Shown: one piece after another, positions 4,618 through 42,193 of the stretch
How positions within the stretch are numbered: the stretch's first letter is position 1
Layout of the letters: the number at the start of each line of letters is the position of its first letter
NCBI RefSeq assembly: GCF_002158865.1
Contig: NZ_CP021455.1
Span: forward strand, 1,096,835-1,160,834
Source: Comamonas serinivorans
GTDB taxonomy: Bacteria; Pseudomonadota; Gammaproteobacteria; Burkholderiales; Burkholderiaceae_C
Direction of reading: 5' to 3'
DNA length: 64,000 nt
Position numbers and translations under genes: made by a program
The notes under the pieces: model-generated
The model's database searches: none
Seen by the model: the letters and a program-made list of their open reading frames with translations, nothing else
Told to the model about the DNA's origin: nothing

Positions 4618-6603
4618 TCACTCGGGTGAGGGCGTCGGATCAGGGTGCCGCCTGCAGCCGTCAGTCGCCGGCTGCAACAGGTCTTGCACGCGTGCGCGCA
4701 TGGTCTCCAGCGTCTGCGCTTCGGGGGGCATGGCCTCGCCCACGCTCAGGCCCACCGGGCTGAAGGTCCCACGCCGGAATGGCTTGGTCATGGCGCCCGT
4801 GGGTTCGATGCGCGAGAAGTAGCTGCCCCAGAGGTTGGTCAGCGCCATGGGCACCACGGGCACGCTCAGGCCGTCGGCGCGCGCCTGCTCCAGGATCTTC
4901 AGCACCCCGCTCTTGAACGCACCCAGCTCGCCGTCGCGCGTGATGGCGCCTTCGGGGAAGATGGCCAGCAGCTCGCCTTCGCGCAGCACCTGGGCGGCTT
5001 CGACGAAGGCGCGCTCGTAGGCCGCGGGGTCGTCGCGTGCGGGGGCGATGGGGATGGCCTTGGCGAGCTTGAACAGCCAGCCCAGCACGGGCACCTTGAA
5101 GATCTGGTGGTCCATGATGAAGCGGATGGGCCGCGGGCTGGCCGCCATCAGCAGCACGGCGTCGATGAAGCTGACGTGGTTGGCGATGAGCACGGCCGGA
5201 CCGTCGGCCGGGATGTGGTCACGCCCGGTGATGCGGAAGCGGTACACCAGCTTGGTGAGCACCCAGGCGTGAAAGCGCAGCCAGTACTCGGGCACCAGGA
5301 AGAAGATGTAGGCCGCCACCAGCGCATTGGCGATGCCGGTGAACAGGAAGATCTGCGGGATGGAGAAGCCGGCCTGCAGCAGCGCGCCCGCGATCACGGC
5401 CGAGGCGATCATGAACAGCGCGTTGAGGATGTTGTTGGCCGCGATGATGCGCGCGCGGTGCGAGGGCCGGGCGCGCAGCTGGATGAGCGCGTACATGGGC
5501 ACGCTGAACAGGCCGGTGAACATCGACATCAGGCCCAGGTCGGCCATCACGCGCCAGTGCGCGCCCTGTTGCAGAAAGCCGCCCACGTCGAACAGGCCAC
5601 TGGCGGGCGGCGCGGGCAGGCTGCGCGTGGCGAAGAACAGGTCGATGGCGAACACCGTCATGCCGATGGCGCCCACGGGCACCAGCCCGATCTCGACCTG
5701 GTGGCCCGACAGCTTTTCGCACAGCAGCGCCCCCACGCCGATGCCGACCGAGAACACGGCCAGCAGCAGCGAGGCGACGTGGGCGTCGCAGTGCAGCACT
5801 TCTTTGGCAAAGGCCGGAAACTGGCTGAGGAACACAGCGCCGAAGAACCACATCCACGAGATGCCCAGCAGCGAGCGGAACACGGCCAGCTGCTCGTGCG
5901 CCAGGCGCAGGTTGCGCCAGGTTTCGGTCACAGGGTTCCAGTTCACCTGCAAGCCGGGGTCGGTGGCCGGCGACACAGGGATGAACTGCGCCGCAAGCCG
6001 CCCCAGCAGGGCCAGCACCACGCACGAGATGCCCACCCATTCGGGCCCCACCTGCGGCACCACCACCAGCACCCCGCCCACCAGCTGGCCCAGCAAGATG
6101 GCGACGAAGGTGCCCATTTCGACCATGCCGTTGCCGCCCGTCAGTTCGCGCTCGGACAGGTGCTGCGGCAGGTAGGCGAACTTCACCGGGCCGAACAGGG
6201 TGGAGTGCAGGCCCATGAGGAAGGTGCACAGCAGCAGCACCGGCACGTTGGCGCTGAAGAAGCCCCAGGCCGCCAGGGCCATGATGGCCACCTCCAGCCA
6301 TTTGACGAAGCGGATCAGCGCGCGCTTTTCCAGCTTGTCGGCCAGCTGGCCGCTGGTGGCCGAGAACACCAGATAGGGCAGGATGAACAGCGCGCCGATC
6401 ACCAGGCCCGCCATGTCGGCCGGCAGCCAGCTCACCTGCAGCATGTAGGTCACCATCACGGTGAACGCGAACTTGAAGAGGTTGTCGTTCGCGGCGCCGG
6501 CAAACTGGGTCCAAAAAAACGGCGCAAAGCGGCGCTGGCCCAGCAAGGCGAACTGCCCGGAGGGCGCTTGGCCGGCCTGGGCCTGGCGGGTCGATTCGGT
6601 CAT
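4618..6603 (-). CDS. MFS lysophospholipid transporter fused to acyltransferase (LplT/Aas-like)
   Basis: Twelve-TM MFS body followed by a PlsC-type acyltransferase domain with NHVSFIDAVLL (HX4D) and FPEGAITRDG. Start trimmed to MTESTRQ. Confidence 0.8.
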   Translation of the reverse strand: MTESTRQAQAGQAPSGQFALLGQRRFAPFFWTQFAGAANDNLFKFAFTVMVTYMLQVSWLPADMAGLVIGALFILPYLVFSATSGQLADKLEKRALIRFVKWLEVAIMALAAWGFFSANVPVLLLCTFLMGLHSTLFGPVKFAYLPQHLSERELTGGNGMVEMGTFVAILLGQLVGGVLVVVPQVGPEWVGISCVVLALLGRLAAQFIPVSPATDPGLQVNWNPVTETWRNLRLAHEQLAVFRSLLGISWMWFFGAVFLSQFPAFAKEVLHCDAHVASLLLAVFSVGIGVGALLCEKLSGHQVEIGLVPVGAIGMTVFAIDLFFATRSLPAPPASGLFDVGGFLQQGAHWRVMADLGLMSMFTGLFSVPMYALIQLRARPSHRARIIAANNILNALFMIASAVIAGALLQAGFSIPQIFLFTGIANALVAAYIFFLVPEYWLRFHAWVLTKLVYRFRITGRDHIPADGPAVLIANHVSFIDAVLLMAASPRPIRFIMDHQIFKVPVLGWLFKLAKAIPIAPARDDPAAYERAFVEAAQVLREGELLAIFPEGAITRDGELGAFKSGVLKILEQARADGLSVPVVPMALTNLWGSYFSRIEPTGAMTKPFRRGTFSPVGLSVGEAMPPEAQTLETMRARVQDLLQPATDGCRRHPDPTPSPE

Positions 6604-27512: not shown

Positions 27513-27730
27513 GGCGAGGTCCTTGGCAAAAACCGACGGCTGACGAGGGACGGGCACGGCGGGCATGCCGTGCGCGGGTTCACTGCCCGGCCAGCTTTGC
27601 AAGCCTGGGCGGCCGAGGCTGTGCTTTAGGCGTCAGCGCAGGCCGCAGATGCCGTGCCTGGCCGGTGGCGAACGCCCGCCTGCGGCCGCGGAGCGCGCGG
27701 CGGCCAGGCGGACTAAAATCACCGGCTTCG

Positions 27731-27847
27731 CACCAAGGAGCGCTGCAGTTGGCCCAGGCCTTGCCTGGCCGGGCCTGTCAGGCTTGGTGCGGAACGTGTC
27801 GCGCCGGCCACGCCTGCGCTGGCGCGTGGTGTCAACGGCGCTCACCT
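27731..27847 (+). promoter_or_regulatory. SAH (S-adenosylhomocysteine) riboswitch in the metH leader
   Basis: CCAAGGAGCGCTGC (27733-27746) ... CAGGCTTGG (27779-27787) ... CAACGGCGCTCACC (27833-27846) match the conserved SAH-element cores (AGGAGCGCUGC / CAGGCUCGG / AACGGCGCUCAC). P1 is CCAAG/CTTGG and extra hairpins occupy the variable positions. CTCACCTG (27841-27848) can pair with CAGGTGAG (27872-27879), which contains the metH RBS. Confidence 0.75.
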
Positions 27848-27883
27848 GTTGTGTTGCTTGTCGGTTTTTTGCAGGTGAGTGTG

Positions 27884-30652
<2,769 letters not shown>

Positions 30653-30722: not shown

Positions 30723-31343
30723 TCAATCGCTGCGGCCGAATCCGGCGACAGGGTGTCGCAGGCGATCGTGGCGGTAGTCCTCGGCGACCTGTGCCCGCAG
30801 CACCTGCCAGTGCGCGCGGGACACATGCTGGCCCAGCGGCTGCCAGGCCGGGTAAGGGTTGTAGACCGCCACGTCGTCGGGGTACAGAAACGGCTGGAAC
30901 TTGAACGGGATGGGCAGCTGCGGTGCGGGCCCCAGGTTCAGCAGGGCCAGCAGACGCGCACAGCGGCCGCGAATGCGCTGCCAGTGTTCGCCCTCCACAA
31001 AGCCGCGGTGCGAGGTGTGCCAGGCCAGCTCGCGCACCACCTCGCGTTTCAAGGCTGGCGGAAAACGGTGCGCGTCGATCAGCCCATGCAGGCGCGGGTC
31101 GTCCAGCACGGCATCGGCCAGGTTCATCAGCTCGAAGTCCTGCAGCACCAGGGCGCAGAACAGCTGGTAGGCCGGGTTGCTGATGCGGTAGCCATGCTCC
31201 TCATCCAGCGTGATGGCGGCTTGGTGCGCGCCGGGGCTCACTGGCGTCAGCGTGCAGGTGTAGAAGTGCGCGAGCTGGGTGGCTGCTGGCAACTGGCCGA
31301 AGTGCAGCAACGCGTGCAGGTGGTTCAGGTCAAGCATCGGCAT
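30723..31343 (-). CDS. hypothetical protein (orphan, no recognised domain)
   Basis: 206-aa ORF, same strand and 77 nt downstream of the SPFH gene, with a 9-bp-stem hairpin (31379..31404) in the gap. Confidence 0.45.
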   Translation of the reverse strand: MPMLDLNHLHALLHFGQLPAATQLAHFYTCTLTPVSPGAHQAAITLDEEHGYRISNPAYQLFCALVLQDFELMNLADAVLDDPRLHGLIDAHRFPPALKREVVRELAWHTSHRGFVEGEHWQRIRGRCARLLALLNLGPAPQLPIPFKFQPFLYPDDVAVYNPYPAWQPLGQHVSRAHWQVLRAQVAEDYRHDRLRHPVAGFGRSD

Positions 31344-31420
31344 CCCCAGTCAGCGTCGCGCACAAAGCGTGGCAACTTGAGCGGCACGGTTCACGGTGCC
31401 GCTCATCCAGTGCTCGGCGC

Positions 31421-32581
31421 TCACCCTGGCTGGCGCAGCGTCACCAGGCCGTTCAGCACCTGATCGAGCCCGCCGACGACGGAGATCTTGTCGATGCGCT
31501 CGGCCACGCGCTCCAGCGTTTCCAGCTCCTTCATGCGCAGGGCGACGGGGTTGCCCTCCATCACCTTGGCGGTGTTCAACAGCGAACGCGTGGCCGCCGT
31601 TTCCTCGCGGCGGCGGATCACGTTGGCCTGGGCCGACTTTTCGGCCTCCACGACCTGGGCGAGGATGGTCTTCATCTCGCCGGGCAGGATGATGTCTTTC
31701 ACGCCCACGCTGTCCAGCGCCACGCCCGATTCAGCCAGGCGCTCGCGCACCTGGGCCAGCACGGCGCCATCGATGGCGGCCTTGTTTTCCAGCAACGCAT
31801 CCAGGTTCTGTTCGCCCACGGCGGCGCGCAGGCCGAATTGCAGCTCGCGGTAGACGTGGTCGGCTGGCTTGGGCATGCGCGCCAGCGCGCGCTGCACGTC
31901 GGTGAAGTGCCACACGGCCGAGAGGTTCAGTCGCAGGCCCACCTTGTCACGGGTCAGGATTTCCTGGCCATTCACCTCGGCGATCTGCGCTCGCAGGTCC
32001 ACGGTGCTCACGCTCACCTGACGGTTGAAGCGCCAGAAGCCATGCACGCCTGCCGGCAGCAGCGCTTGCATCTGGCCGTCCAGCGTGAGCACGCCAGCGT
32101 GGAACTCGGGCACCTGCACCAGCAGCACGCCGTCCAGGCCGCGCACGGCGCGCGGGCGCAGTGCCACGCTGTGCAGCTTGGCCAGCAACTCGGCGGGCAG
32201 GCGCGCGTCGGCGCTCAGGTCGACCACGTCCACGCGCTGTTCGCGCAGGCCGCGCCAGAACAGCTGGCGCGTGGACGGCGGCAGGATCTCGACCAGCACG
32301 CCGTCTTCGTGGCGCAGGCCGACCTCGGTTTCGCCCAGCACCACCTGCACGAACTCGCGGGCCAGCAGGGCCGGCTCGTGGGCTACGAAGTAGTCGGCCA
32401 GCTCGTGCTCAAAGCGCGCCGGCGCGTCCGGTTTGCCCAGCGAAAAGCGTTCCAGCGTCACATCGTCCAGGCCTGTGAACACGCGGTGCTTGCCCGGGCC
32501 AAACAGGCCGGCGAAATCGCCATCGCGCAGCAGCAGCGCGCGTTCGTGCTTTTTGACGGTGAAAATGGTGAATCCCAGCAT
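31421..32581 (-). CDS. SPFH/Band-7 (slipin-like) domain protein without TM segment
   Basis: C-terminal half: VGVKDIILPGEMK.ILAQVVEAEK.AQANVIRRREETAATRSLLNTAK is typical SPFH plus coiled-coil. N-terminal ~180 aa form an extra beta-rich region. RBS GGGAGAG. Confidence 0.75.
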   Translation of the reverse strand: MLGFTIFTVKKHERALLLRDGDFAGLFGPGKHRVFTGLDDVTLERFSLGKPDAPARFEHELADYFVAHEPALLAREFVQVVLGETEVGLRHEDGVLVEILPPSTRQLFWRGLREQRVDVVDLSADARLPAELLAKLHSVALRPRAVRGLDGVLLVQVPEFHAGVLTLDGQMQALLPAGVHGFWRFNRQVSVSTVDLRAQIAEVNGQEILTRDKVGLRLNLSAVWHFTDVQRALARMPKPADHVYRELQFGLRAAVGEQNLDALLENKAAIDGAVLAQVRERLAESGVALDSVGVKDIILPGEMKTILAQVVEAEKSAQANVIRRREETAATRSLLNTAKVMEGNPVALRMKELETLERVAERIDKISVVGGLDQVLNGLVTLRQPG

Positions 32582-32608
32582 GTTGCTCTCCCGGTGTGTT
32601 GTTGGTCA

Positions 32609-32660
32609 TGGGTATGGCCGTGTCGTCATTGATGATCAGTCGCAAAAATTGCCATACCCA
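32609..32660. repeat. nested-palindrome repeat family, copy R14
   Basis: TGGGTATGGC / GCCATACCCA perfect 10-bp outer arms. Interior TCATTGATGA. Lies just upstream of the SPFH start. Confidence 0.8.
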
Positions 32661-32933
32661 AGTTCTGTTCAAGGTGCCCAGCTCGCACAGGCTGCGGGCG
32701 ATCGGCGGGGTGCCGGCGCGCGTGGTCGTGCTCCCGGTTGTGTTGCTGGCACTGGCCTGGGCCAGGTGCACGGCCGCACAACCGCGATGGCGGCTGGCGC
32801 GCCAGGCACCGAAGCGCGAGGCACAGGCAGCCTGTGCGGGCAAGGTGCGCCGGGCGGCAGGACCAAGCCATTCGCCAAGCGCCGCCTTGCCAGGGCGGGT
32901 GGGGCTTTCGCCCCCATCCAAGCGGTGCAAGCA

Positions 32934-33040
32934 CCGCGGCAATGGGCGGGAATCGAACCCGCAGCCGCCACCGAAGTCGCGGTGTTCAACCATGAACAAG
33001 TCTTGGACCGAAACCAAGCGTCACCTCAGCCCATCCGCGG
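32934..33040 (-). ncRNA. tRNA-like structured RNA 3 (canonical T-arm, extended bulged stem)
   Basis: Minus strand: closing stem CCGCGGATGG / CCAT-TG-CCGCGG and a canonical T-arm GCGGG-TTCGATT-CCCGC. Internal hairpins are CTTGG-TTTCGGT-CCAAG, TGTTCA-TGGT-TGAACA, and CCGCGAC-TTCG-GTGGCGG (UUCG tetraloop). It begins ~85 nt downstream of promoter P1. Confidence 0.55.
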
Positions 33041-33134
33041 CATACCGCCCACCCAAGAACGGGTCTGGCGGGCGGCACCGGGCCGCATGCATGCGGCACC
33101 TCGTGCGGATGACTGCGTCCGACAGCAGGTGTCT

Positions 33135-33150
33135 TGCAGACGCCGTGCCA
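33135..33150 (-). promoter_or_regulatory. sigma-54 promoter P1 (divergent from rtcR)
   Basis: Minus strand reads TGGCACGGCGTCTGCA, with GG and GC elements at the exact consensus spacing (TGGCAC-N5-TTGCW). Confidence 0.7.
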
Positions 33151-33280
33151 ACTTCCGGCCCAGGCCGTTTCCGCGTGGAGGCCGCTGCGCCAATGCCTTG
33201 ATTTGCAAGCGGTTCGGTGCCCCTGGCCCGCTGACCTGCGTGTCAGCGGGCGATCGTCGGTGTTTGCTAGACTGAGGACC

Positions 33281-33310
33281 CTTGATTCATCCGGCGCGTT
33301 CTTGATTCAG
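33281..33310 (+). promoter_or_regulatory. candidate UAS direct repeats CTTGATTCA x2 upstream of P1 / at rtcR start
   Basis: CTTGATTCATCC (33281-92) and CTTGATTCAG (33301-10), plus a related CTTGATTTGCAAG at 33197-33209. They lie 130-160 bp upstream of P1 on its template. Confidence 0.35.
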
Positions 33311-33312
33311 CC

Positions 33313-34965
33313 ATGAAACCCATTCACGTCATCACCTTCCTGGGCACCCAGCTGGACAGCGGCAACGGTGCCGGCCGCTGGGAGAAGTGGCGGCCCACCG
33401 TGGCGCTGACCCAGCACGAGGACATGGAGGTCGCGCGGCTGGACCTGCTGCTGACCGGGCCCAGCCACCGGGCGCTGGCCGAGCGCGTGCGCGCCGACAT
33501 CGGCACGGTGTCGCCCGCCACCGAGGTCGTGCTGCACGAGTTGGCCGTGGACGATCCCTGGGACTTCGACGTCGTCTACACGCAGCTGTTCGATTGGGCC
33601 CGCGCGCAGGCCTTCGATACCGAGGCCGCGCAGTACTGGGCGCACATCACCACCGGCACGCATGTGGCGCAGATCTGCCTGTTCCTGCTGACCGAGTCGC
33701 GCGTGCTGCCCGGGGTGCTGTGCCAGACCTCGCCGCCCAAGCGGCAGCGCGAGGGCGCGGCCGGTGCCTACACGCTGATCGACCTCGACCTCTCGCGCTA
33801 CGACGCCATCGCCCAGCGCCATGCGGCCGACCAGCGCGATGCAGTGGCCTTCCTGAAAAGCGGCATCGCCACGCGCAATGCGCGCTTCAACGCGCTCATC
33901 GACGAGGTCGAGCGCGTGGCCGTGCGCTCCACCGCGCCGGTGCTGTTCGTGGGGCCCACGGGCGCGGGCAAGTCCTTCCTGGCCCGGCGCATGCACGAGC
34001 TGAAGAAATCGCGCCACCAGATCAACGGCGCCTTCGTCGAAGTCAACTGCGCCACGCTGCGTGGCGACGGCGCGGCCTCGACGCTGTTCGGCCACAAGCG
34101 CGGTGCTTTCACCGGCGCCGCCACCGACCGGCCCGGCCTGCTGCGCGCCGCCGATGGTGGGCTGCTGTTCCTCGACGAAATCGGCGAGCTGGGGGCCGAC
34201 GAGCAGGCCATGCTGCTCATGGCCATCGAAGACAAGCGCTTCTACCCCCTGGGTTCGGACCGCGAGGTGACCAGCGACTTTCAGCTGGTGGCGGGCACCA
34301 ACCGCGACCTGCGCGCCGAGGTCGCCGCGGGGCGGTTTCGCGAAGACCTGTTCTCGCGCATCAACCTGTGGACCTACGAGCTGCCTGGCCTGGCGGGCCG
34401 GCCTGAGGACATCGAACCCAACGTCGACTACCTGCTCACCCGCCATGCGCAAGCCTCGCGCCGCGCGGCCCGCTTCAACGTCGAAGCGCGCCGCGCCTAC
34501 CTGCGCTTTGCGCAAAGCGGCGAAGCGCTGTGGCGCGGCAATTTCCGCGACCTGTATGCCAGCGTGACGCGCCTGGCGACCCTGGCCGAGGGCGGGCGCA
34601 TCACCGAGCCGCTGGTGGTGGCTGAGATCAAACGGCTGCGCTGGATGTGGACGCGCGACAGCGCGGTGGCGGCGCCCGGCGCGCGCGCCTCGGGGGGCTC
34701 GCCGGGGGCGATGGCGGTCGATGCGGCGAGCGTGGACCTGGCCGACTTCTACGACGAAGCGGCCCTGGAGCAGATCGACCTGTTCGACCGCGTGCAGCTG
34801 CAGGGCGTCATCGCGGTGTGCCAGCGCTCGCGCACGCTGTCGGACGCGGGGCGCCAGCTGTACCAGGCCTCGCGGGCGCAACGCGCGGCGTTGAACGATT
34901 CGGACCGCCTGCGCAAGTACCTGGCCAAGTTCAACCTGAGCTGGGACCGCGTCAGCACACGATGA
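33313..34965 (+). CDS. rtcR: sigma-54-dependent transcriptional regulator RtcR (CARF-AAA+-HTH)
   Basis: Collinear over the full length with E. coli RtcR as I recall it: WEKWRPTV N-terminal region, HITTGTHVAQICLFLL, GPTGAGKSFLARR, GAFTGA loop, FLDEIGELG, and C-terminal DRLRKYLAKF HTH. Confidence 0.85.
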   Translation: MKPIHVITFLGTQLDSGNGAGRWEKWRPTVALTQHEDMEVARLDLLLTGPSHRALAERVRADIGTVSPATEVVLHELAVDDPWDFDVVYTQLFDWARAQAFDTEAAQYWAHITTGTHVAQICLFLLTESRVLPGVLCQTSPPKRQREGAAGAYTLIDLDLSRYDAIAQRHAADQRDAVAFLKSGIATRNARFNALIDEVERVAVRSTAPVLFVGPTGAGKSFLARRMHELKKSRHQINGAFVEVNCATLRGDGAASTLFGHKRGAFTGAATDRPGLLRAADGGLLFLDEIGELGADEQAMLLMAIEDKRFYPLGSDREVTSDFQLVAGTNRDLRAEVAAGRFREDLFSRINLWTYELPGLAGRPEDIEPNVDYLLTRHAQASRRAARFNVEARRAYLRFAQSGEALWRGNFRDLYASVTRLATLAEGGRITEPLVVAEIKRLRWMWTRDSAVAAPGARASGGSPGAMAVDAASVDLADFYDEAALEQIDLFDRVQLQGVIAVCQRSRTLSDAGRQLYQASRAQRAALNDSDRLRKYLAKFNLSWDRVSTR

Positions 34966-34966
34966 T

Positions 34967-35019
34967 GGGGTATGGTGTGAATGCCGTTTTCCATGAAACG
35001 GAAATGGCCTGATACTGCC
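34967..35019. repeat. nested-palindrome repeat family, copy R15
   Basis: GGGGTATGG ... TGCCGTTT-TCCATG-AAACGGAA ... CTGATACTGCC. Starts 2 nt after the rtcR stop. Confidence 0.85.
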
Positions 35020-35133
35020 AAGGCTAAGCATTCCACAATGGGATGATCAACAGCGCGCCCGCCGGCTTGCACGGTGGGGCGCATGCAGCGGCTGGCCCAA
35101 GGCCGGGTGCACGACATGGAGAGGGAGACGCAC

Positions 35134-35802
35134 ATGGCGCAGTACATCGAGGTCATTGGACAGGCCAGCGTGAGCGAAGTGGCCGTGGAGCAGCGCGTGG
35201 CGCTGACGGTGTCGCACCGCGGCAAGGGCGGTGGCATGTCGGACAAGGTGGTGGCGCACAAGGCCACGCAGCAGCGTGAGCGGGTGATCGCCACGCTGCT
35301 GGCCCACGGCATGCGGGAGCACGAATTGCATGAGGGCGGCATGGACAGCGGCACCTGGCACTTCAAGCGCAAGCGCGAGGTGCACCACAGCCACCGCATC
35401 CTGCTGATCTGCGAGGACGACGCGCGCCTGTTTGCGGCCCTCGAGGCCCTGGCGCCGCTGCAGGACGAGGGCGAGCTTGACTTGCAACTGGACATGCTGG
35501 ACGCCCGCTACGAGGTGCCGGCCGGTGCGCTGAGCGGGGCGCAGCAGGCGGCGGTGGCGCATGCCCGTGAGCATGCGAATGGCCTGGCGCAGGCTGCCGG
35601 CGTGGCGCTGGGCGCGGTGGTGCAGGTGCAAGAGCTGGCGCCGGCGCGGGAGCGTTCGGGTGCCTATGGCGAGTCCTGGTATGGCTTGGCCGCCGCAGGC
35701 GGCGCGGCTGCGGCACCGGCCATGACCCTCTTGGCGAGTAACCAGCGCACGCGCACCTTGAGCTACCGCGTGCGCTTTGCGCTGCAGCGGGCTGTGCCCT
35801 GA
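35134..35802 (+). CDS. SIMPL (DUF541)-like protein, no signal peptide
   Basis: YIEVIGQASVSEVAVEQRVALTV...A...A...A..LAQAAGVALGAVVQVQE pattern. RBS GGAGAGGGAG lies 6 nt upstream of the ATG at 35134. Confidence 0.55.
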   Translation: MAQYIEVIGQASVSEVAVEQRVALTVSHRGKGGGMSDKVVAHKATQQRERVIATLLAHGMREHELHEGGMDSGTWHFKRKREVHHSHRILLICEDDARLFAALEALAPLQDEGELDLQLDMLDARYEVPAGALSGAQQAAVAHAREHANGLAQAAGVALGAVVQVQELAPARERSGAYGESWYGLAAAGGAAAAPAMTLLASNQRTRTLSYRVRFALQRAVP

Positions 35803-35883
35803 CGCGCGTCGTTCGCCGCAACGCCTGGGCCGCGGTGGCCTGAATGTCGGTCCGACCGTGCACTGGGCAGGACGTGGGGCCAG

Positions 35884-35916
35884 TGAATCGCCTGCAACGC
35901 CCCTGCAGACGATTCA
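35884..35916 (+). promoter_or_regulatory. candidate enhancer (UAS) inverted repeat upstream of P2
   Basis: TGAATCG-N19-CGATTCA lies 110-140 bp upstream of P2. It shares the GATTCA core with sites upstream of P1 and P3. Confidence 0.35.
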
Positions 35917-36025
35917 TGGGCGGGCGTAGAGTTCGCATCGAAAGCGATACAGTGGGATCGTGTTCGGCGGTCATGGTGGCGTGCAGCCCTGCTGTCGCCC
36001 TGGGGTGAAGCGGGATGGGCCGAAC

Positions 36026-36041
36026 TGGCACGGCCGTTGCG
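36026..36041 (+). promoter_or_regulatory. sigma-54 promoter P2
   Basis: TGGCACGGCCGTTGCG is a perfect TGGCAC-N5-TTGC. The predicted start lies a few nt before the stem of tRNA-like RNA 1 (36059). Confidence 0.75.
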
Positions 36042-36058
36042 AAGGATGAGGTGAACGT

Positions 36059-36146
36059 GGGCCCAGGTCTGGGGTGGCGCAAAGCGAGCGCGTCGGACTT
36101 GAATCCGAAGGGTGCTGGTGCAAGTCCAGCCCCCAGACCTGGGCCC
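36059..36146 (+). ncRNA. tRNA-like / Y-RNA-like cloverleaf RNA 1
   Basis: Perfect 16-bp stem GGGCCCAGGTCTGGGG (36059-74) / CCCCAGACCTGGGCCC (36131-46). It encloses TG, D-like arm GCGC-AAAGCGA-GCGC, G, anticodon-like arm TCGGA-CTTGAA-TCCGA, AGGGT, and T-like arm GCTGG-TGCAAGT-CCAGC. There is no CCA end. Confidence 0.65.
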
Positions 36147-36292
36147 GCGAAACCCGGGGGCGCGACGGCGCGAGGCAGGCCTTGACGCGGCGGCCGTGTC
36201 GGCAAGGGTGCAGCGAGAAGCGGCTACCAGGCCGGTTGCCACGCATCGCAGCCCGTCGGCCAGCCCGACCGGCAGGGGATGAGGTCAGGTGT

Positions 36293-36373
36293 GCAACGGT
36301 CTGGCGCAGTTCAAGGAGAACGCCCGACCATGCATCGGGAAGGTGCTGGACAAGCCAGCCGCCAGACCGTTGC
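36293..36373 (+). ncRNA. tRNA-like / Y-RNA-like cloverleaf RNA 2 (paralogue of RNA 1)
   Basis: Perfect 14-bp stem GCAACGGTCTGGCG / CGCCAGACCGTTGC. It encloses CA, GTTC-AAGGA-GAAC, G, CCCGA-CCATGCA-TCGGG, AAGGT and GCTGG-ACAAG-CCAGC. The topology matches RNA 1, with compensatory changes in the D-like and anticodon-like stems. Confidence 0.65.
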
Positions 36374-36422
36374 GCATGGGCCAGTCCCCGTCCCGATCCA
36401 CACGAACACAGGGAGAGCGGCC

Positions 36423-39320
36423 ATGGGCCAGCACGACGAAGAGCACTCACCGGACGCCGGTGAGCACCCGGTGCCGCCGGCGCATGCGGCATCCGGGCTT
36501 GCCCAGGCGAACCCGGGCTGGGCAGCCGGCCAGCTTGCACGCGCCCGTGCGGCTTTGGCACAGGCACAGGTACAGCGGGACCCGTCAGGGCCCGACGCGG
36601 CCGGCGCTGCGTCATCCGCGGATACCGACGCTGCAGGCCACGCCGTGGCGCGTGCGCTGGCCAAGGTGAATGCCTGGCGCCAGGCCTTGGCCGGCATGGC
36701 CAGTGGCGAGCTGCAGGTGGGGTCGCGCACGCCGCTGCGCAACGTGGCGGCCTGGCTCACGCCGAATGTGTTGCACGGCGGATTCGCCTCGGGCCAGCTG
36801 ATGGCCGGGGGGCGCGCGCAAGCACACGAGACGCACTGGCTGGCGCAACTGGCGGCCGGTCAGCCGCTGGGCAGCACGCCGACCGACTGTGCCCGGATGG
36901 CCACGCTGGCGGCACAGCCCGTGGACCGCAGCACGCTGCCCCAGAAGCTGGACCGCACGCCGCTGAACGACTGGTTCCTGACCGAGGCGGGCCTGCAGCA
37001 GCTGATGCAGTGGCTGGACGACGGCCGCTGGCGCATCGCCGTGCCCGAGGAGGGCGCCTTGCTGGTGGTGGCCTGGCTGCTGAGGCAGGGGCATGACACC
37101 TCGGCGGCCCGCCTGTTGGACACCCTGTCGCCCTACTGGCACCGCGTTCGCTTTTACCCGCAGCCCGCTGCGACGCCCATGCCGGCGCTCGACCGCGTGA
37201 GCCTGCGCAGCGCGCAGGACGTGATGGCGCAGTTGAACCAGCTGCAGACGCCGCCCGCGGTGCTGGCCCAGCACCAAGCCATCCACGTGTGGCGCCCCTT
37301 GCTCGACGAGCTGGTGCTGCTGTGGCTGCAGGCCGTGCCCGGCGCGCTGCACGGCCCTGACGCTGCCGCGGCCCATGGCGAATCCGGGCGAGGTGCCGAC
37401 GGCGCCGTGACGGATGCGCTGCCGCGCCTGCGTGCCGGCACGCGCGAGGCCGAAGGCGGCTTGCCCCTGGCCGAGCCCGACGCCGACTGGCGGCAGCAGG
37501 CGGCGGCCTGGCGCCTGCGGGCGCGCGAGGCCGAGGCGCAGCACACGCGCAGCCGGGCGCACCGCAAGCCCGGCTCGCACGTGGCGCAGTTGTGGGCCAT
37601 GCTGGACCAGGTGCTGCAAGGTCAGGCCCTGAGCGAGGCACAGCGCCGCCGGCTGCGCTTTGTGCTGGCGTGCCAGGTCAGCGCCCATGGCGTGCCAGGC
37701 GATGCGAGGCACCACACCTGGCGCGCCGCGCAACGGGCGCAGACCGACACCGTGTGGCGCGCCCACTGGGCGTACGCACTGGCCGCGCGCGTGCAGGCGC
37801 AGGGCCCCTACGCGCTGGGCGATGGCCTGCCGGATCTGGACACCGCGCTGCAAGCTGCCACGGCGCAAGAGGCACAACAACATGCGCACCTGCCCGAAGG
37901 CACCGTGGTCTGGCCCAGCCTGCGCCGCAAGCTGCGCCGCGCCCACTTGGCCACCGTGCCGCAGCTGGTGCAAGCCGGCATCGTGCCGTCGAGCGAGGTG
38001 CTGGCCAGCGTGCTGCCCGGCACCACGGGCGCACAGCTGGCGCGCACCATGCCCGATGCGGCCAGCGCGCGGCTGCTGGGCGCGCTGTGGCGTGCGTTTC
38101 GCGGGCGACGCTCGGTGCTGCTGCTGAACCACGAGTCGCAGGTGCGCTTTCACGAGCTGCCCTGGGTGCTGCGCTTGCAGCAGCACGCCTGCGTGCCGGC
38201 GACGGCCGCCGGGACCGAGGGCGATTCGGCACATCGCTGGGACATGGCCGGCCTGGCGCGCAGCCAGGCGTTGGCGCAGCTGGATGCGGCCGCGCGCCTG
38301 GCGCTGACGCAATTCCCGCAATCGGCCTTCCCGAACCCGCTGCTGTGGGAGCTTCGCGCGCTGGCCGAGCAGGGTGGCTGGCAGCCGCCGTGGGTCGAAG
38401 ACATCGCGGCCGACATCTTCATGGGCAGCTTTGGGCCCAAGTTCGGGCAGGCCGTGCACGACGCGCTGCCCTGGTTGCAGGGCAGCCTGTATGCGCAGCA
38501 TTTCCAGCTCGACCTGGAGGCGCTGCGCCTGGCCATGGCGCCGGCCGTGGCCTGCCACGCGGCCTTTCAGCGTTACGCCGAAACGCCAGCGGGCTCACCC
38601 GGCAACCCCGCGGCCAAGCGCGAACAACAGGCCTTGCTGCAGCGCTATCACGCGGCGCCCGACCTGCTGGTGGCGCACCTGCGTGCGCGCACGGGCTGGT
38701 CGGCCGACGCCCGCGGCGTGGGCGCGAATGGCGCCGTCATCGAGCAGATGGGCCTGGTCAGCACGGCCAACTTCGCGCCGCTGGCGCAGCGCTTTGGCTG
38801 GGGCGTGGCCGGTGCCGGTTTGCGCGATGCCACGGCCCAGGCGCGCGAGCTCCAGGGGTGGGCGCAGGCCGCACGCACGGGCTTCGAGCGGCTGTGCGCG
38901 GGGCTGGACCTGGGCGTGCGCGAAGCCGGCGCCATGCTGGACAAGCCGCCAACCCAGATCCAGGCGACAAACCCGGCGGATGCCCATGCGGCAGCGACAG
39001 AAGCCCAGGCCGCCGACCGCCTGCTGGCCGAGCGCGTGCGCCGGGCCGCCACCAGCTGGCGCCAGGTCGTGCTGCTGCTGAGCCTGCTGCCCGCCGAGCA
39101 GCAGCGCGCCAACCTGCTGGGCATGCAGCGCCACCTCGCGGCCTGTGACACCCCCGCCAGCCGGGGCGTGACGCGCGCCCTGGCGCCCCAGCTGGCCGAC
39201 CTGATGGCCTGTGTGCAAGGCCAGGCGCGCGACGCCGGTCGGCCACCGTTCCACGGCTGGACCCAGCCAGGGCAGCGGGGCGTGCTGTTCACCCTGCGCC
39301 AGGGCCTGAAGGCCGGGTGA
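36423..39320 (+). CDS. large orphan protein (965 aa), predicted all-alpha, no recognised domain
   Basis: Longest frame in the region. RBS GGGAGAG upstream of the ATG at 36423. Ala/Leu/Gln/Trp-rich composition, versus an Arg/Gly-rich antisense ORF. Lies downstream of sigma-54 promoter P2 and the two tRNA-like RNAs. Confidence 0.6.
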   Translation: MGQHDEEHSPDAGEHPVPPAHAASGLAQANPGWAAGQLARARAALAQAQVQRDPSGPDAAGAASSADTDAAGHAVARALAKVNAWRQALAGMASGELQVGSRTPLRNVAAWLTPNVLHGGFASGQLMAGGRAQAHETHWLAQLAAGQPLGSTPTDCARMATLAAQPVDRSTLPQKLDRTPLNDWFLTEAGLQQLMQWLDDGRWRIAVPEEGALLVVAWLLRQGHDTSAARLLDTLSPYWHRVRFYPQPAATPMPALDRVSLRSAQDVMAQLNQLQTPPAVLAQHQAIHVWRPLLDELVLLWLQAVPGALHGPDAAAAHGESGRGADGAVTDALPRLRAGTREAEGGLPLAEPDADWRQQAAAWRLRAREAEAQHTRSRAHRKPGSHVAQLWAMLDQVLQGQALSEAQRRRLRFVLACQVSAHGVPGDARHHTWRAAQRAQTDTVWRAHWAYALAARVQAQGPYALGDGLPDLDTALQAATAQEAQQHAHLPEGTVVWPSLRRKLRRAHLATVPQLVQAGIVPSSEVLASVLPGTTGAQLARTMPDAASARLLGALWRAFRGRRSVLLLNHESQVRFHELPWVLRLQQHACVPATAAGTEGDSAHRWDMAGLARSQALAQLDAAARLALTQFPQSAFPNPLLWELRALAEQGGWQPPWVEDIAADIFMGSFGPKFGQAVHDALPWLQGSLYAQHFQLDLEALRLAMAPAVACHAAFQRYAETPAGSPGNPAAKREQQALLQRYHAAPDLLVAHLRARTGWSADARGVGANGAVIEQMGLVSTANFAPLAQRFGWGVAGAGLRDATAQARELQGWAQAARTGFERLCAGLDLGVREAGAMLDKPPTQIQATNPADAHAAATEAQAADRLLAERVRRAATSWRQVVLLLSLLPAEQQRANLLGMQRHLAACDTPASRGVTRALAPQLADLMACVQGQARDAGRPPFHGWTQPGQRGVLFTLRQGLKAG

Positions 39321-39710
39321 GCAGGTCGGGTGAGGTCAGGTGAAGCCAGCGGGGCCATGGGGCCCCATCTTCCAGGTTGGCCCGAATGGTGACCGTGGGT
39401 CTGGGTGCCGGTGCTGCCGCCCCAGGCGTTCGCTGTGGGCGCCTGGCGGACTGGCGCCGAGGAACGGAGGAGCTTGCGCGACAATCCGGCATCCGGTCCG
39501 GGCGAGGCTCGCTAGGACATGGCCATGGCGCGCGGCGGTCAGCACGCGGCGGTGTCGGCCCCGCAGCCGCGCGATCCCGGTGGTCGGGTGCAAGTGCCCT
39601 GTCGGCTTGCGTTCCACGCCAACAGGCCTGCTGCCGTGCCTCGTGCCATGTCAACCGTTGCTTGACGGTCGGCGGGCCCCGTGCCCACGCCGTGTTGTTC
39701 AGAAGTACCC

Positions 39711-40454
39711 ATGCCTTTACGCATCGACGAAGCCATCACCCAGCTGGATCACGGCTGGCTCAGCCATTTGAAATCGCAGGGTTACGGCGGCGATGCCTTG
39801 CGCCAGGCGATCGACCTGGTGCTGTACGCCCAACAGCAGGCGGCGGCGCGCAACAGCGCCGAGTTCAAGGCCGCCATCGCGCGCGTCAACCACCTGGTGG
39901 GGGCGGGCATCGCGTGTGACAACAACGGCGACTACCTGTACACGGCCGAGTGGCGCGACCCGGCTTGCGCCGGGCTGGGCTTCGCCATCGAATACGCGGC
40001 CGACCCGGCCAGCTGGCGGGCCGAGTTCCGCATGCCCGGCTGCTGGCCGCACACCGTGGACAACCTCGACATCACCGACACCCGCGCTGTGGACCACGAC
40101 TTTGCGCTCTGGCTGGCGCGCGCCAGTGCCCGCCATTTCACGCACCTGATCGAACGCCAGCTGCCCGAAGGCGAAGCACTGCGCGCGCCCTGTACGGCGG
40201 CCGTGCGGGCCGGCACCTGGGCCGAATTCGTGTGCCTGCACCCACTGCAACCCGTGGCCCGCCTGGGGCACGAGCGGCTGGAGCAGGCCGCCTGGTCGGC
40301 CCAATACCCCAGTGCCGCCCAGCGCGAGTTGCAGGCCCGCTTCGATGTGCAGAGCGCCTTGCTGCTGCGCTTGATCGTGGTTCAGCAGGCAGCATGGGCT
40401 TGGCATGAAGAGTATGGCGACAATCGCGATGACGATTCAACGGGAAGGCATTGA
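39711..40454 (+). CDS. orphan protein (247 aa), no recognised domain
   Basis: ORF between the 965-aa gene and rtcA on the same strand. The last ~15 codons and the stop lie in repeat copy R16. Confidence 0.5.
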   Translation: MPLRIDEAITQLDHGWLSHLKSQGYGGDALRQAIDLVLYAQQQAAARNSAEFKAAIARVNHLVGAGIACDNNGDYLYTAEWRDPACAGLGFAIEYAADPASWRAEFRMPGCWPHTVDNLDITDTRAVDHDFALWLARASARHFTHLIERQLPEGEALRAPCTAAVRAGTWAEFVCLHPLQPVARLGHERLEQAAWSAQYPSAAQRELQARFDVQSALLLRLIVVQQAAWAWHEEYGDNRDDDSTGRH

Positions 40455-40460
40455 TACTCC
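40410..40460. repeat. nested-palindrome repeat family, copy R16
   Basis: GAGTATGGCG ... ATCGCGATGACGATTCAACGGGAA ... TTGATACTCC. Supplies the last codons and the stop of the 247-aa ORF. Confidence 0.65.
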
Positions 40461-40814
40461 ATTTGATGTGGCGCTTGCTGAGGGCTGCTTGCCCGACACC
40501 GGAAGGCTGGCGTCGACGCAGGGACATGACGCGTGGCCAGCGGTGCATGGGCTCGCCAGCCGCCCGCACAGCGCCCCCAACCCGCTGACTGGGCGTCCTG
40601 ATGCAGCAGGCCTGGCTCGACCTGCCCGTGCTCTTTCGCCTGCATGCGCAGGCGCGTGGCCAACAGGTGGCGCAGCCCGAGCGGGCCGATGGGGTGTTCG
40701 CCATCCAGGGCACGGCCAGCGCGCAGCCTCACACCGTCCGAGACGGACCGCATCCGGGCCGATTGCCTGTGAAGGCGGGCTTGCAAGGGGCGCTGCATGG
40801 ATCGCTGGCGCGCT

Positions 40815-40828
40815 GGATGAATCAAGCC
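40815..40828 (-). promoter_or_regulatory. candidate UAS upstream of P3
   Basis: The reverse complement reads GGCTTGATTCATCC, nearly identical to the 33281 site and ~110 bp upstream of P3. Weaker CTTGATCCGG (40886-95) and TTGATTTGG (40919-27) sites follow. Confidence 0.35.
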
Positions 40829-40934
40829 AGTTTGGCTTGCGGTGGCTGAGCCGTGGCGAGGCGCAGGCGCCCTCGACGCCAAGTGCTTGATCCGGCAAGG
40901 GTTTGCGCGGCTCGCCTGTTGATTTGGCGGGGCC

Positions 40935-40950
40935 TGGCACGCCGCGTGCA
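40935..40950 (+). promoter_or_regulatory. sigma-54 promoter P3 (rtcA)
   Basis: TGGCACGCCGCGTGCA has correct GG/GC spacing and lies 38 nt upstream of the rtcA ATG. Confidence 0.65.
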
Positions 40951-40987
40951 ACGAGGATGGCCACACACAACTCAACTGGGAGCACAC

Positions 40988-42193
40988 ATGCCAACCGACG
41001 ACCAGGTGGAGGCGAAGCCGCGTCACCGTGACCCAGCTCGCACGGCCACCGCCGCAGACACCAAAAGCGTGACCGGCGCAGCGCAGACGGGCCGTGGCGC
41101 AGCCATCGAGATCGATGGCTCGCAGGGCGAGGGCGGCGGGCAGATCCTGCGCACGGCGCTGGCCTTGTCCATGATCACCGGCCAGCCGCTGCACCTGCGC
41201 GCCATCCGCGCCAAGCGGCCCAAGCCCGGGCTCATGCGCCAGCACCTGATGTGCGTGCAGGCGGCCGCGCAGGTCAGCGGGGCCCACATCAGCGGGGCCG
41301 AGCTGGGGGCCACCGAGTTGCGCTTCGCGCCGGGCCCGGTGCGGGCGAGCGCCTACGAATTTGCCATGGCCAGCGCAGGCAGCTGCATGCTGGTGCTGCA
41401 GACCGTGCTGCCGGCGTTGATGCTGGCCGATGCCCCCAGCACGCTGGTGCTGCGGGGCGGCACGCACAACCCCATGGCGCCCAGCTTCCACTTTGTGCGC
41501 GATGCCTTTGCGCCGCTGGTGCAGCGCCTGGGCGCCGGCCTGACGCTGCAGCTGCAGCGGCTGGGCTTTTACCCCGCAGGCGGTGGCGAGGTCACGGCCA
41601 CCATCACGCCTGCGGCCCGCCTGACCCCGTTCGACCTGACCGAGCGTGGCGAGCTGCAGCAGGGCGATGCTCTGTGCCTGACGCCGGGGCTGTCGGGGTC
41701 GATCGCGCGCCGCGAGCTGACGGCGCTGGGCCAGGCCATGGGCTGGGGCGAGGACCGCTTGCGCTTTGGCGAGGCCAGGCAGCACGAGGGGCCGGGCAAT
41801 GCCTTGATCGCCCGCCTGCGCTACGCCCACGTGACCGAGGTGTTCGTCGAGCTTGGGGCCCGCAACCTGTCGTCGGAGCAGGTGGCCGGCAAGCTGGTGC
41901 AGGCCATCCGGGCGTTTCAACGCCGGCCAGGTGCCGCGGTGGGCCCACACTTGGCCGACCAGCTGGTGCTGCTGCAGGCCCTGGCCGTGTGGCAGGCCGG
42001 ACGGACCGGCAGCCAGGCGGATGCGCCCCACGCCGATGTGCCCCAGGCGGATGTGCCGCAAGCACGCTTCTCGTGCAGCGAGGTGACCGAGCACTTGCGC
42101 ACCAACTGCGTGGTGATCGAACGCTTTCTGCCCGTGCGCTGCACGCTGACCCAGGGCCCTGTGTCCCGGGTGACGGTGCGCTGGGCGGGGTGA
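40988..42193 (+). CDS. rtcA: RNA 3'-terminal phosphate cyclase RtcA
   Basis: IEIDGSQGEGGGQILRTALALS..TG.P..L..IRA.R..PGL..QHL. RBS GGGAG upstream of the ATG at 40988. N-terminal ~35-aa extension and a 15-nt x3 in-frame repeat near the C-terminus. Confidence 0.85.
   Translation: MPTDDQVEAKPRHRDPARTATAADTKSVTGAAQTGRGAAIEIDGSQGEGGGQILRTALALSMITGQPLHLRAIRAKRPKPGLMRQHLMCVQAAAQVSGAHISGAELGATELRFAPGPVRASAYEFAMASAGSCMLVLQTVLPALMLADAPSTLVLRGGTHNPMAPSFHFVRDAFAPLVQRLGAGLTLQLQRLGFYPAGGGEVTATITPAARLTPFDLTERGELQQGDALCLTPGLSGSIARRELTALGQAMGWGEDRLRFGEARQHEGPGNALIARLRYAHVTEVFVELGARNLSSEQVAGKLVQAIRAFQRRPGAAVGPHLADQLVLLQALAVWQAGRTGSQADAPHADVPQADVPQARFSCSEVTEHLRTNCVVIERFLPVRCTLTQGPVSRVTVRWAG
42017..42061 (+). 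repeat. 15-nt x3 in-frame tandem repeat inside rtcA
   Basis: GCGGATGCGCCCCAC / GCCGATGTGCCCCAG / GCGGATGTGCCGCAA, encoding ADAPH-ADVPQ-ADVPQ. Confidence 0.7.

Follow-up and report, generated by a model that had tools for sequence, protein, structure and literature searches.

We analyzed a 64,000-nucleotide stretch of Comamonas serinivorans DNA (contig NZ_CP021455.1, positions 1,096,835 to 1,160,834; hereafter the window), in which an island of genes around rtcR occupies positions 30723-42193. RtcR systems are the best-known bacterial RNA-damage response. Within this island, we found that the gene for a large all-α protein, here called X, is preceded by two tRNA-like RNA genes, and that X and a tRNA-like RNA form a gene pair across phyla, with the RNA abutting the X start codon. 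As far as we checked, the novelty lies in this pair; the island as a whole is a variation on known RtcR regulons. At slightly less than an even chance, we read it as a composite RtcR/sigma-54 regulon in which two independently conserved tRNA-like RNA/protein modules (A and B) stand alongside rtcA, and in which a co-transcribed RNA-protein pair would serve a tRNA or RNA-damage response. The genes of rtcR and module B, with window coordinates and strand, are as follows; Y and Z are the open reading frames (ORFs) that follow X, and R1 is a covariance model of X-linked RNAs.

33313-34965, +, rtcR (NCBIfam RNA_repair_RtcR NF038308, 788 bits against a cut-off of 650, residues 5-548)
36026-36040, +, P2, putative sigma-54 -24/-12 element TGGCACGGCCGTTGC, a sequence match
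36059-36146, +, tRNA-like RNA 1, core 36068-36139 (Rfam tRNA, 52.8 bits; also called by ARAGORN)
36289-36377, +, tRNA-like RNA 2, core 36300-36368 (missed by ARAGORN and Rfam; R1, 53.2 bits, E value 2e-11)
36423-39320, +, protein X, 965 amino acids (CCO03_04750), true start codon ATG at 36423, unannotated all-α family
39711-40454, +, protein Y, 247 amino acids, ORF without a family, after X
40619-40769, +, relic of Z (C-terminus of a lost 726-amino-acid gene), between Y and P3
40935-40949, +, P3, putative sigma-54 -24/-12 element TGGCACGCCGCGTGC, 39 nt before the rtcA start codon
40988-42193, +, rtcA, RNA 3'-terminal phosphate cyclase, 401 amino acids (NF003246, 373 bits against a cut-off of 352)

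Protein X and its tRNA-like RNA

R1, built from 39 X-linked tRNA-like RNAs, detected a tRNA-like RNA directly upstream of X, on the same strand, in 76 of 84 loci of many phyla, and ARAGORN called a tRNA-like gene within 450 nt upstream of X, again on the same strand, in 66 of 87 loci. Tandem sets of two to four such RNAs are frequent. The gap between the RNA and the X start codon has a median of 2 nt and is 5 nt or less in 40 of 64 cases; the typical junction reads ...CACGTCGGC-tt-ATG and has no Shine-Dalgarno sequence. A junction of 0-2 nt offers a natural model for tRNA-punctuated leaderless mRNA in bacteria.

The X-linked RNAs share a cloverleaf in which compensatory changes occur at 17 of 21 pairs. 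All have Y1-R72 as their first pair and C32 and U33 without exception, and the stems of the D and anticodon arms are conserved. Positions 34-36 are nearly random (entropy 1.67-1.87 bits) in a molecule that is otherwise near-invariant. Loops of 5-6 nt occur in some copies, and neither G18G19 nor T54-Psi55 is present in those of actinomycetes. R1 gives X-linked copies from outside the Comamonas lineage 77-91 bits, against 35-57 bits for tRNAs at those loci and a maximum of 70 bits for array tRNAs. We conclude from these sequence features that the X-linked RNAs form one family and are not ordinary, working tRNAs. In actinomycete X loci (L009-L087, Streptomyces and others; the prefix L marks loci used for comparison), ARAGORN calls them tRNA-Pro, tRNA-Gly, tRNA-Ser, tRNA-SeC (selenocysteine), and others, so genome annotations may count them as decoding tRNAs. 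Hundreds of actinomycete tRNA calls may be X-linked mimics of this kind.

The two RNAs of the window depart from the canonical tRNA (7-nt loop, G18G19/T54-Psi55-C56 elbow, 7-bp acceptor stem, conserved anticodon) and carry the marks of the X-linked family, namely Y1-R72, C32-U33, and a same-strand position upstream of X. RNA 1, which is among the seeds of R1 and scores 72 bits on it, has a 6-nt anticodon loop, no G18G19, and an acceptor stem about 9 bp longer. RNA 2, which was excluded from the seeds, has shortened T and D loops and an acceptor stem about 11 bp longer, and the cloverleaf appears in its minimum-free-energy fold. Because array tRNAs reach 70 bits on R1, the window copies cannot be told from such tRNAs by score alone. 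Both RNAs lie between P2 and X and are syntenic in the orthologous metagenome loci L005 and L006. Acceptor stems in this Comamonas lineage reach 16-18 bp, and their extensions covary among the window, L005, and L006; in these three loci the RNAs lie 50-300 nt from the X ORF, which has its own Shine-Dalgarno sequence. Anticodons differ among the orthologues of RNAs 1 and 2 (tg/at). Rfam gave no match to the window RNAs other than tRNA, and none to YrlA.

Protein X belongs to a family with at least 462 confirmed relatives in a scan of one genome per species. These come from actinomycetes (mostly Streptomyces), Planctomycetota, Verrucomicrobia, Acidobacteriota, Chloroflexota, Cyanobacteria, Myxococcus, Variovorax, and Massilia. 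An exhaustive profile search gave 1,877 clusters at 50% identity, nearly all of them single-domain proteins of 720-850 amino acids; compared with the usual 750-800, the 965-amino-acid window protein has lineage-specific insertions. Its AlphaFold2 model is all-α (predicted local distance difference test score, pLDDT, 85; predicted template modeling score 0.81). Conserved motifs are GSRTP...W.T..V..GGFATG, PEEGALL.VAWLL, AFRRRRSLLLL, AADIFMG, NG..IEQ, and AYAWRQ, and they point to no known catalytic site. X has no fold relative in the PDB, and a profile search of PDB sequences was likewise empty. We considered X as a relative of Ro60/TROVE and rejected this (hhalign probability 0.2). X was found on no viral contig of IMG/VR, and clustering of neighboring ORFs in 83 loci revealed no conserved protein partner beyond local Streptomyces synteny. 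As far as we checked, the pair of X and tRNA-like RNA is undescribed, being absent from Pfam, NCBIfam, Rfam 15, PADLOC, and PHROGs. We found nothing on the pairing in the literature covered, which did not include the full text of Burroughs and Aravind (2016), where X could be mentioned. With a protein of about 800 amino acids and unrecognized fold, and occurring from Streptomyces to Planctomycetota, the pair is a testable candidate for a new player in tRNA and RNA quality control.

RtcR, its promoters, and X in RNA-repair operons

The rtcR gene is full-length, as the initial annotation had it, and its product comprises a CARF-type RtcR domain (PF06956), an AAA+ Sigma54_activat domain (PF00158), and a C-terminal region. 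It is 85% identical to the RtcR of L006. RtcA, which has an N-terminal extension of 38 amino acids, is 71-72% identical to its counterparts in L005 and L006. The nearest relatives of module B have the order rtcR-P2-RNA1-RNA2-X-Y-Z-P3-rtcA, and the window runs P2, two tRNA-like RNAs, X, Y, Z relic, P3, rtcA. Z is intact between Y and rtcA in the relatives (L005:4543-6741, L006:14028-16208). Y is 68-80% identical to the genes that follow X in L005, L006, and L007 and is kept downstream of X in the nearest relatives only; the ORF after X in L025, which we considered as a further relative of Y, is unrelated. In its own right, Z matches over its full length the phage protein family phrog_33734 (function unassigned) and adjoins X in a Pyrinomonadaceae metagenome-assembled genome (L068:10439-12469).

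Beyond these relatives, X and its RNA occur in several operons of RNA repair. L006 has a Ro60 gene upstream (Ro60...rtcR-tRNA-like x2-X-Y-Z-rtcA). The Pirellulaceae locus L025 (Planctomycetota) reads rtcR / Ro60-RtcB-tRNA-like x2-X, and the Chloracidobacterium locus L013 (Acidobacteriota) reads rtcR / DUF6847-...-RtcB-RtcA-tRNA-like-X. In Massilia (L001:6223-9792, L082), an elongation factor G (EF-G) paralogue and RNA-X stand with a convergent RNA ligase (PF09414) and an AAA_33 kinase. We conclude that X and its RNA are an accessory module that has been repeatedly recruited into rtcR/rsr/rtcB/rtcA operons. Because X shares operons with Ro60, RtcB, or RtcA in L025 and L013, it is no substitute for RtcB or Ro60, and the earlier suggestion that the 965-amino-acid protein stands in their place is not supported. 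Two side observations concern these loci: the rtcR-divergent operon of L013 (2597-6669) opens with a DUF6847 protein and its RtcB contains an intein, and in Massilia two small EFG_IV-domain ORFs also precede RNA-X.

The window itself has neither RtcB nor Ro60. Searches by tblastn of all 64 kb, with four RtcB proteins of related loci and with the Ro60 proteins of L006 and L025, revealed neither a gene nor a remnant, in agreement with the initial annotation. RtcR regulons thus appear modular, in that the ligase can drop out as the cyclase and RNA-linked cofactors stay.

The three sigma-54-type elements of the earlier prediction are present as exact matches. The pattern TGGCAC-N6-TGC occurs exactly three times in the window, at P2, at P3, and at P1. 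The last of these and three copies of a candidate activator site are as follows.

33136-33150, -, P1, putative sigma-54 -24/-12 element TGGCACGGCGTCTGC, divergent from rtcR
33281-33309, -, two exact TGAATCAAG repeats, 20 nt apart, 131-159 nt upstream of P1
40818-40826, +, third exact TGAATCAAG, 117 nt upstream of P3

All three elements keep their positions in relatives. In more than 20 related loci with divergent rtcR, the P1 equivalent lies 531-590 nt upstream of the SPFH gene start (SPFH being the first protein gene of module A). In L005 and L006, P2 and P3 have positional counterparts: those of P2 keep TGGCACGGC...TGCG unchanged, and P3 equivalents lie about 50 nt upstream of rtcA (6867 in L005, 16366 in L006). 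L005 has an additional sigma-54 element before its Z gene. By sequence and conserved position, P1-P3 are thus probable sigma-54 promoters. We found no intrinsic terminators or sigma-70 promoters dividing the island beyond the expectation from shuffled sequence. All three exact copies of TGAATCAAG in the 64-kb window fall within the island, and P2 has an inverted pair, TGAATCG-N21-CGATTCA (35885-35917), at a comparable distance; these may be binding sites for RtcR in C. serinivorans. A k-mer search for an RtcR motif shared upstream of P1-P3 and their orthologues was unproductive, returning for P1 merely the coding sequence of rtcR.

The SPFH module and its tRNA-like leader

On the other side of rtcR lies module A, whose features, together with a SIMPL gene between rtcR and P2, are as follows.

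32582-33124, -, structured leader or noncoding RNA of about 540 nt, between P1 and the SPFH gene
~33006-32938, -, RNA 3, tRNA-like core of the leader, with D, anticodon, and T arms kept (R1, 18.8 bits, E value 0.014)
31421-32581, -, SPFH/Band_7 (slipin) protein, 386 amino acids (Pfam Band_7, 1e-25)
30723-31343, -, 206-amino-acid ORF, a near-orphan in the slot held by rtcB in related operons
35134-35802, +, SIMPL/DUF541 protein (Pfam SIMPL, 5.9e-11; no signal peptide)

From its 5' end, the leader runs through a multi-stem domain, a hairpin, D, anticodon-like, and T arms arranged as in a tRNA, and three further hairpins. Xenophilus, Variovorax, and metagenome loci (A3, A4) share this leader, with compensatory changes at 18 of 75 predicted pairs, and its T arm (CGGGTTCGAnTCCCG) is present in almost all SPFH loci. 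The leader core has no clean acceptor stem in SPFH loci of the rtcR type; RNA 3 is therefore best described as a three-armed tRNA mimic inside a longer RNA, and only partly as a cloverleaf. Of the three tRNA-like RNAs initially described, RNAs 1 and 2 are thus clear and the third holds in part. We rejected RNA 3 as a member of the RNA 1/2 family given its score of 18.8 bits on R1 and its unpaired acceptor, and place it in another tRNA-like class; on R1, the SPFH-linked RNAs reach 26-56 bits.

Orthologues of the SPFH protein ("slipin family protein") in Comamonadaceae and other Burkholderiales are 80-86% identical to it. rtcB follows the SPFH gene in 64 of 83 loci, which is essentially all of those with sufficient downstream sequence, and the window departs from this; rtcR is divergent in 30 of the 83. 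Genomes of Xenophilus, Variovorax, and Ramlibacter show a divergent rtcR, then a leader of about 700 nt, then SPFH-rtcB-(...)-rtcA. From this comparison, module A is probably the front end of an SPFH-rtcB(-rtcA) operon common in Comamonadaceae, from which rtcB would have been lost in the window. The 206-amino-acid ORF, the SIMPL gene, and X are found in none of the 83 SPFH loci.

The AlphaFold2 model of the SPFH protein (pLDDT 74) shows a β-rich N-terminal part of about 150 amino acids, an SPFH domain, and long helices, and it resembles stomatin, HflK/C, and prohibitin. None of the island proteins contains a hydrophobic stretch resembling a transmembrane segment or signal peptide (Kyte-Doolittle maximum over 19 residues at most 1.33), which bears out the description of the SPFH protein as lacking a transmembrane segment and of the SIMPL protein as lacking a signal peptide. 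The SPFH protein is predicted to be cytoplasmic, without a membrane anchor, and encoded behind a tRNA-like RNA. The model also aligns with the eukaryotic major vault protein (420-490 columns, E value about 1e-10), a likeness worth recording because vaults also hold a TROVE protein and small RNAs.

Burroughs and Aravind (NAR 2016, 44:8525) reportedly predicted, as cofactors of RNA repair, SPFH/Band-7 modules that have their own novel tRNA-like molecule. Pseudomonas aeruginosa PaFlo8 has an SPFH gene within its rtc locus (PMC13086221). Because such a gene has already been reported, module A is of a known kind, and the SPFH protein is not the newly seen component it had seemed. As in PaFlo8, the SPFH gene of the window lies in an rtc locus; in the window and the 83 loci it is the first gene after a predicted RtcR-controlled promoter, with tRNA-like arms upstream. 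The window differs from the SPFH rtc loci in that no rtcB follows and in that its core, lacking a clean acceptor, sits within a leader of about 540 nt.

SPFH, X, and Y thus co-occur with rtcR in relatives, so the objection that the orphan genes of the island are not conserved beside rtcR fails for these three. It holds for the 206-amino-acid ORF and the SIMPL gene, which adjoin rtcR in none of about 35 rtcR loci inspected. The SIMPL gene may be co-transcribed with rtcR. The 206-amino-acid ORF has just three homologues among 5.8 billion proteins and no match in Pfam, NCBIfam, PADLOC, or PHROGs; the only homologue contig recovered (L091) has different neighbors, with unrelated small ORFs on both sides. 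Neither X nor Y has a Pfam or NCBIfam family match. As candidates for known defense proteins, X, Y, Z, the 206-amino-acid protein, SPFH, and SIMPL were rejected, with zero PADLOC matches; in a PHROGs search of the same six, only Z gave a real match, and SPFH and SIMPL gave weak ones.

Two variants of SPFH loci are recorded here as side observations. Loci with SPFH-rtcB and no rtcR (L115-L171, L090; e.g., L136:79-2341, L155:198-2290) carry same-strand arrays of 10-20 tRNA genes with differing anticodons. The array is followed by an HNH gene, and a tRNA-like gene that ARAGORN can call lies about 300-390 nt before the SPFH start. These arrays fit the cyanobacterial L-array/HNH/rtcB neighborhoods (PMC8421152). 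The Variovorax locus L089 (2860-5658, 10648-13144) is an expanded rtc locus, with SPFH-RtcB-zf_Tbcl-Apyc1-like metallo-β-lactamase-RlaP-RtcA and, behind rtcR, 2'-5' RNA ligase-like, LMWPc-like, and SMI1/KNR4 genes.

Readings of the island, and its flanks

In Salmonella, RtcR is switched on by 5' tRNA halves that end in 2',3'-cyclic phosphate and are bound by its CARF domain; expression of RtcA is sufficient to activate the operon (PMC7790460). With Salmonella rsr-yrlBA-rtcBA and E. coli rtcBA, the island shares a CARF-type RtcR, a divergent sigma-54 promoter, rtcA, and tRNA-mimic RNAs in the transcript. It differs from them in lacking rtcB and rsr, in having three promoters rather than one, and in its added, unrelated SPFH, X, and Y. 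Unlike YrlA, whose topology is circularly permuted (PMC4201824), RNAs 1 and 2 have the normal order of tRNA arms, with extended acceptor stems; the permuted tRNA-like domain and Ro-binding GNCGAA stem of a YrlA-type RNA are not found in the window RNAs. X resembles the Ro60-Y RNA system in being a large helical protein encoded beside a dedicated tRNA-mimic RNA in RtcR/RtcB operons, and Deinococcus radiodurans Yrn1, like RNA 1, has a 6-nt "anticodon" loop. However, X has no sequence or profile similarity to Ro60 and no vWA domain, it coexists with Ro60 in L006 and L025, and its RNA lies upstream of the ORF and abuts it instead of lying downstream. L-arrays are similar in that extra tRNA or tRNA-like genes share their regulation with RNA-repair genes during translational stress, with a proposed sponge role (PMC8421152); the window differs in having no array, and the X RNAs, a single diverged family whose anticodons are arbitrary, do not make up a full decoding set.

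The comparative loci support the view, already put forward in the initial annotation, of a variant RtcR/sigma-54 RNA-damage regulon with protein genes behind tRNA-mimic RNAs. If the composite regulon operates as we propose, RNA damage would produce tRNA halves with 2',3'-cyclic phosphate ends that activate RtcR, and activated RtcR would fire P1, P2, and P3. RtcA, made from its own promoter, would reinforce the signal, and the P2 transcript would supply the tRNA-like RNAs and X jointly. In most lineages, excision of the RNA by RNase P and RNase Z or E would leave an X mRNA with a short leader or none; the released RNA might then join X in a ribonucleoprotein that acts on damaged tRNA or RNA, on the model of Y RNA and Ro60. 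In the Comamonas lineage, with its stems of 16-18 bp, the RNAs may remain longer and be more like Y RNAs. A bolder proposal, quite possible although we lean against it, is that X and its RNA are an unrecognized, widespread ribonucleoprotein, with a new fold and a new class of tRNA mimic, that senses, repairs, or controls the quality of damaged tRNA. Together with Ro60/Y RNA and SPFH/tRNA-like RNA, it would bring the cofactor systems of RNA repair to three, its RNA doubling as the punctuation of a leaderless mRNA.

Several observations weigh against the composite regulon. X has no recognizable RNA-binding or catalytic domain and no structural relative, the idea of a ribonucleoprotein being drawn from gene linkage, and at most X loci there are no RNA-repair neighbors, X standing alone with its RNA. 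The TGGCAC-N6-TGC count equals chance (expectation 2.8; three or more in 49 of 100 shuffles), and it is thus the placement of the elements, not their number, that counts. TGAATCAAG is not conserved in related loci, including upstream of P1 in Variovorax-type loci, and as an activator site it is therefore only tentative. The extended acceptor stems of the Comamonas lineage may block processing by RNase P and RNase Z, and with rtcB and Z gone, part of the island seems to be in decay. Decay could be taken further, to a remnant without coherent function in which the 206-amino-acid, SIMPL, X, and Y genes are passengers and the promoter-like sites partly chance. The missing rtcB, which 64 of 83 orthologous SPFH genes have, the Z relic at 40619-40769, the chance-level promoter count, and the separation of the 206-amino-acid and SIMPL genes from rtcR elsewhere would all fit. 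We nevertheless regard this as very unlikely: every ORF is intact, rtcR, rtcA, SPFH, and X score over their full length, L005 and L006 share the promoters and both RNAs, with covariation, and the X-RNA pair is under obvious purifying selection across phyla.

A processing signal that acts in cis alone would account equally well for the gap of 0-2 nt. Cuts by RNase P and RNase Z would then make a leaderless (actinomycetes) or short-leader X mRNA, tying X translation or stability to tRNA-processing capacity, and the excised RNA would have no role. The short gap without a Shine-Dalgarno sequence suits this, as does the retention of the cloverleaf and of the acceptor and T-arm features used by processing enzymes, with the anticodon free to vary. 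We consider it unlikely, however, as a full account: tandem arrays of two to four copies are common though a single cut would be enough, C32, U33, and the anticodon stem are invariant though processing does not need them, recruitment into Ro/RtcB operons is left unexplained, and the window, L005, and L006 copies are distant from an ORF with its own Shine-Dalgarno sequence and have extended stems. The hypervariable anticodon in a near-invariant RNA, which differs even between tandem copies and among close Streptomyces relatives, instead brings to mind decoys or baits for anticodon nucleases and tRNA-targeting toxins. Such RNAs would soak up the nuclease, or their cleaved halves would keep RtcR on, with X binding, presenting, resealing, or degrading the cleaved decoy. 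Operons that respond to cleaved tRNA do contain the module (PMC7790460), and both operonic tRNAs (PMC8421152) and the YrlA tRNA-like domain (PMC7790460) have been proposed to act as sponges. Yet free variation may simply reflect an absence of constraint, several 5-6-nt loops would be poor nuclease substrates, X is absent from PADLOC models and viral contigs, and nothing marks it as an enzyme; we think a decoy role rather improbable. That RNAs 1 and 2 are genuine, unusual tRNAs, serving in translation or as aminoacyl donors to X as a tRNA-dependent enzyme, is the reading in which we place least belief. Rfam tRNA matches of 47-60 bits, the many family members with 7-nt loops (some of them encoding CCA), and the EF-G paralogue upstream in Massilia would be in keeping with it. 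Against it, one conserved body carries about 20 anticodons, so that synthetase identity elements would clash; RNA 1 has its 6-nt loop, G18G19 and T54-Psi55 are missing from the actinomycete copies, Y1-R72 is the first pair throughout, and the acceptor stems are extended in the Comamonas lineage.

The island is flanked by metH on one side and purU on the other. The B12-dependent methionine synthase ORF (27665-30652), directly upstream of the island, has at its start an S-adenosylhomocysteine riboswitch (27729-27850, +, 48 bits against a gathering score of 37). Elsewhere in the window, Rfam also matched the Burkholderia small RNA Bcj11 (5794-5915, -, 69 bits against a gathering score of 49).

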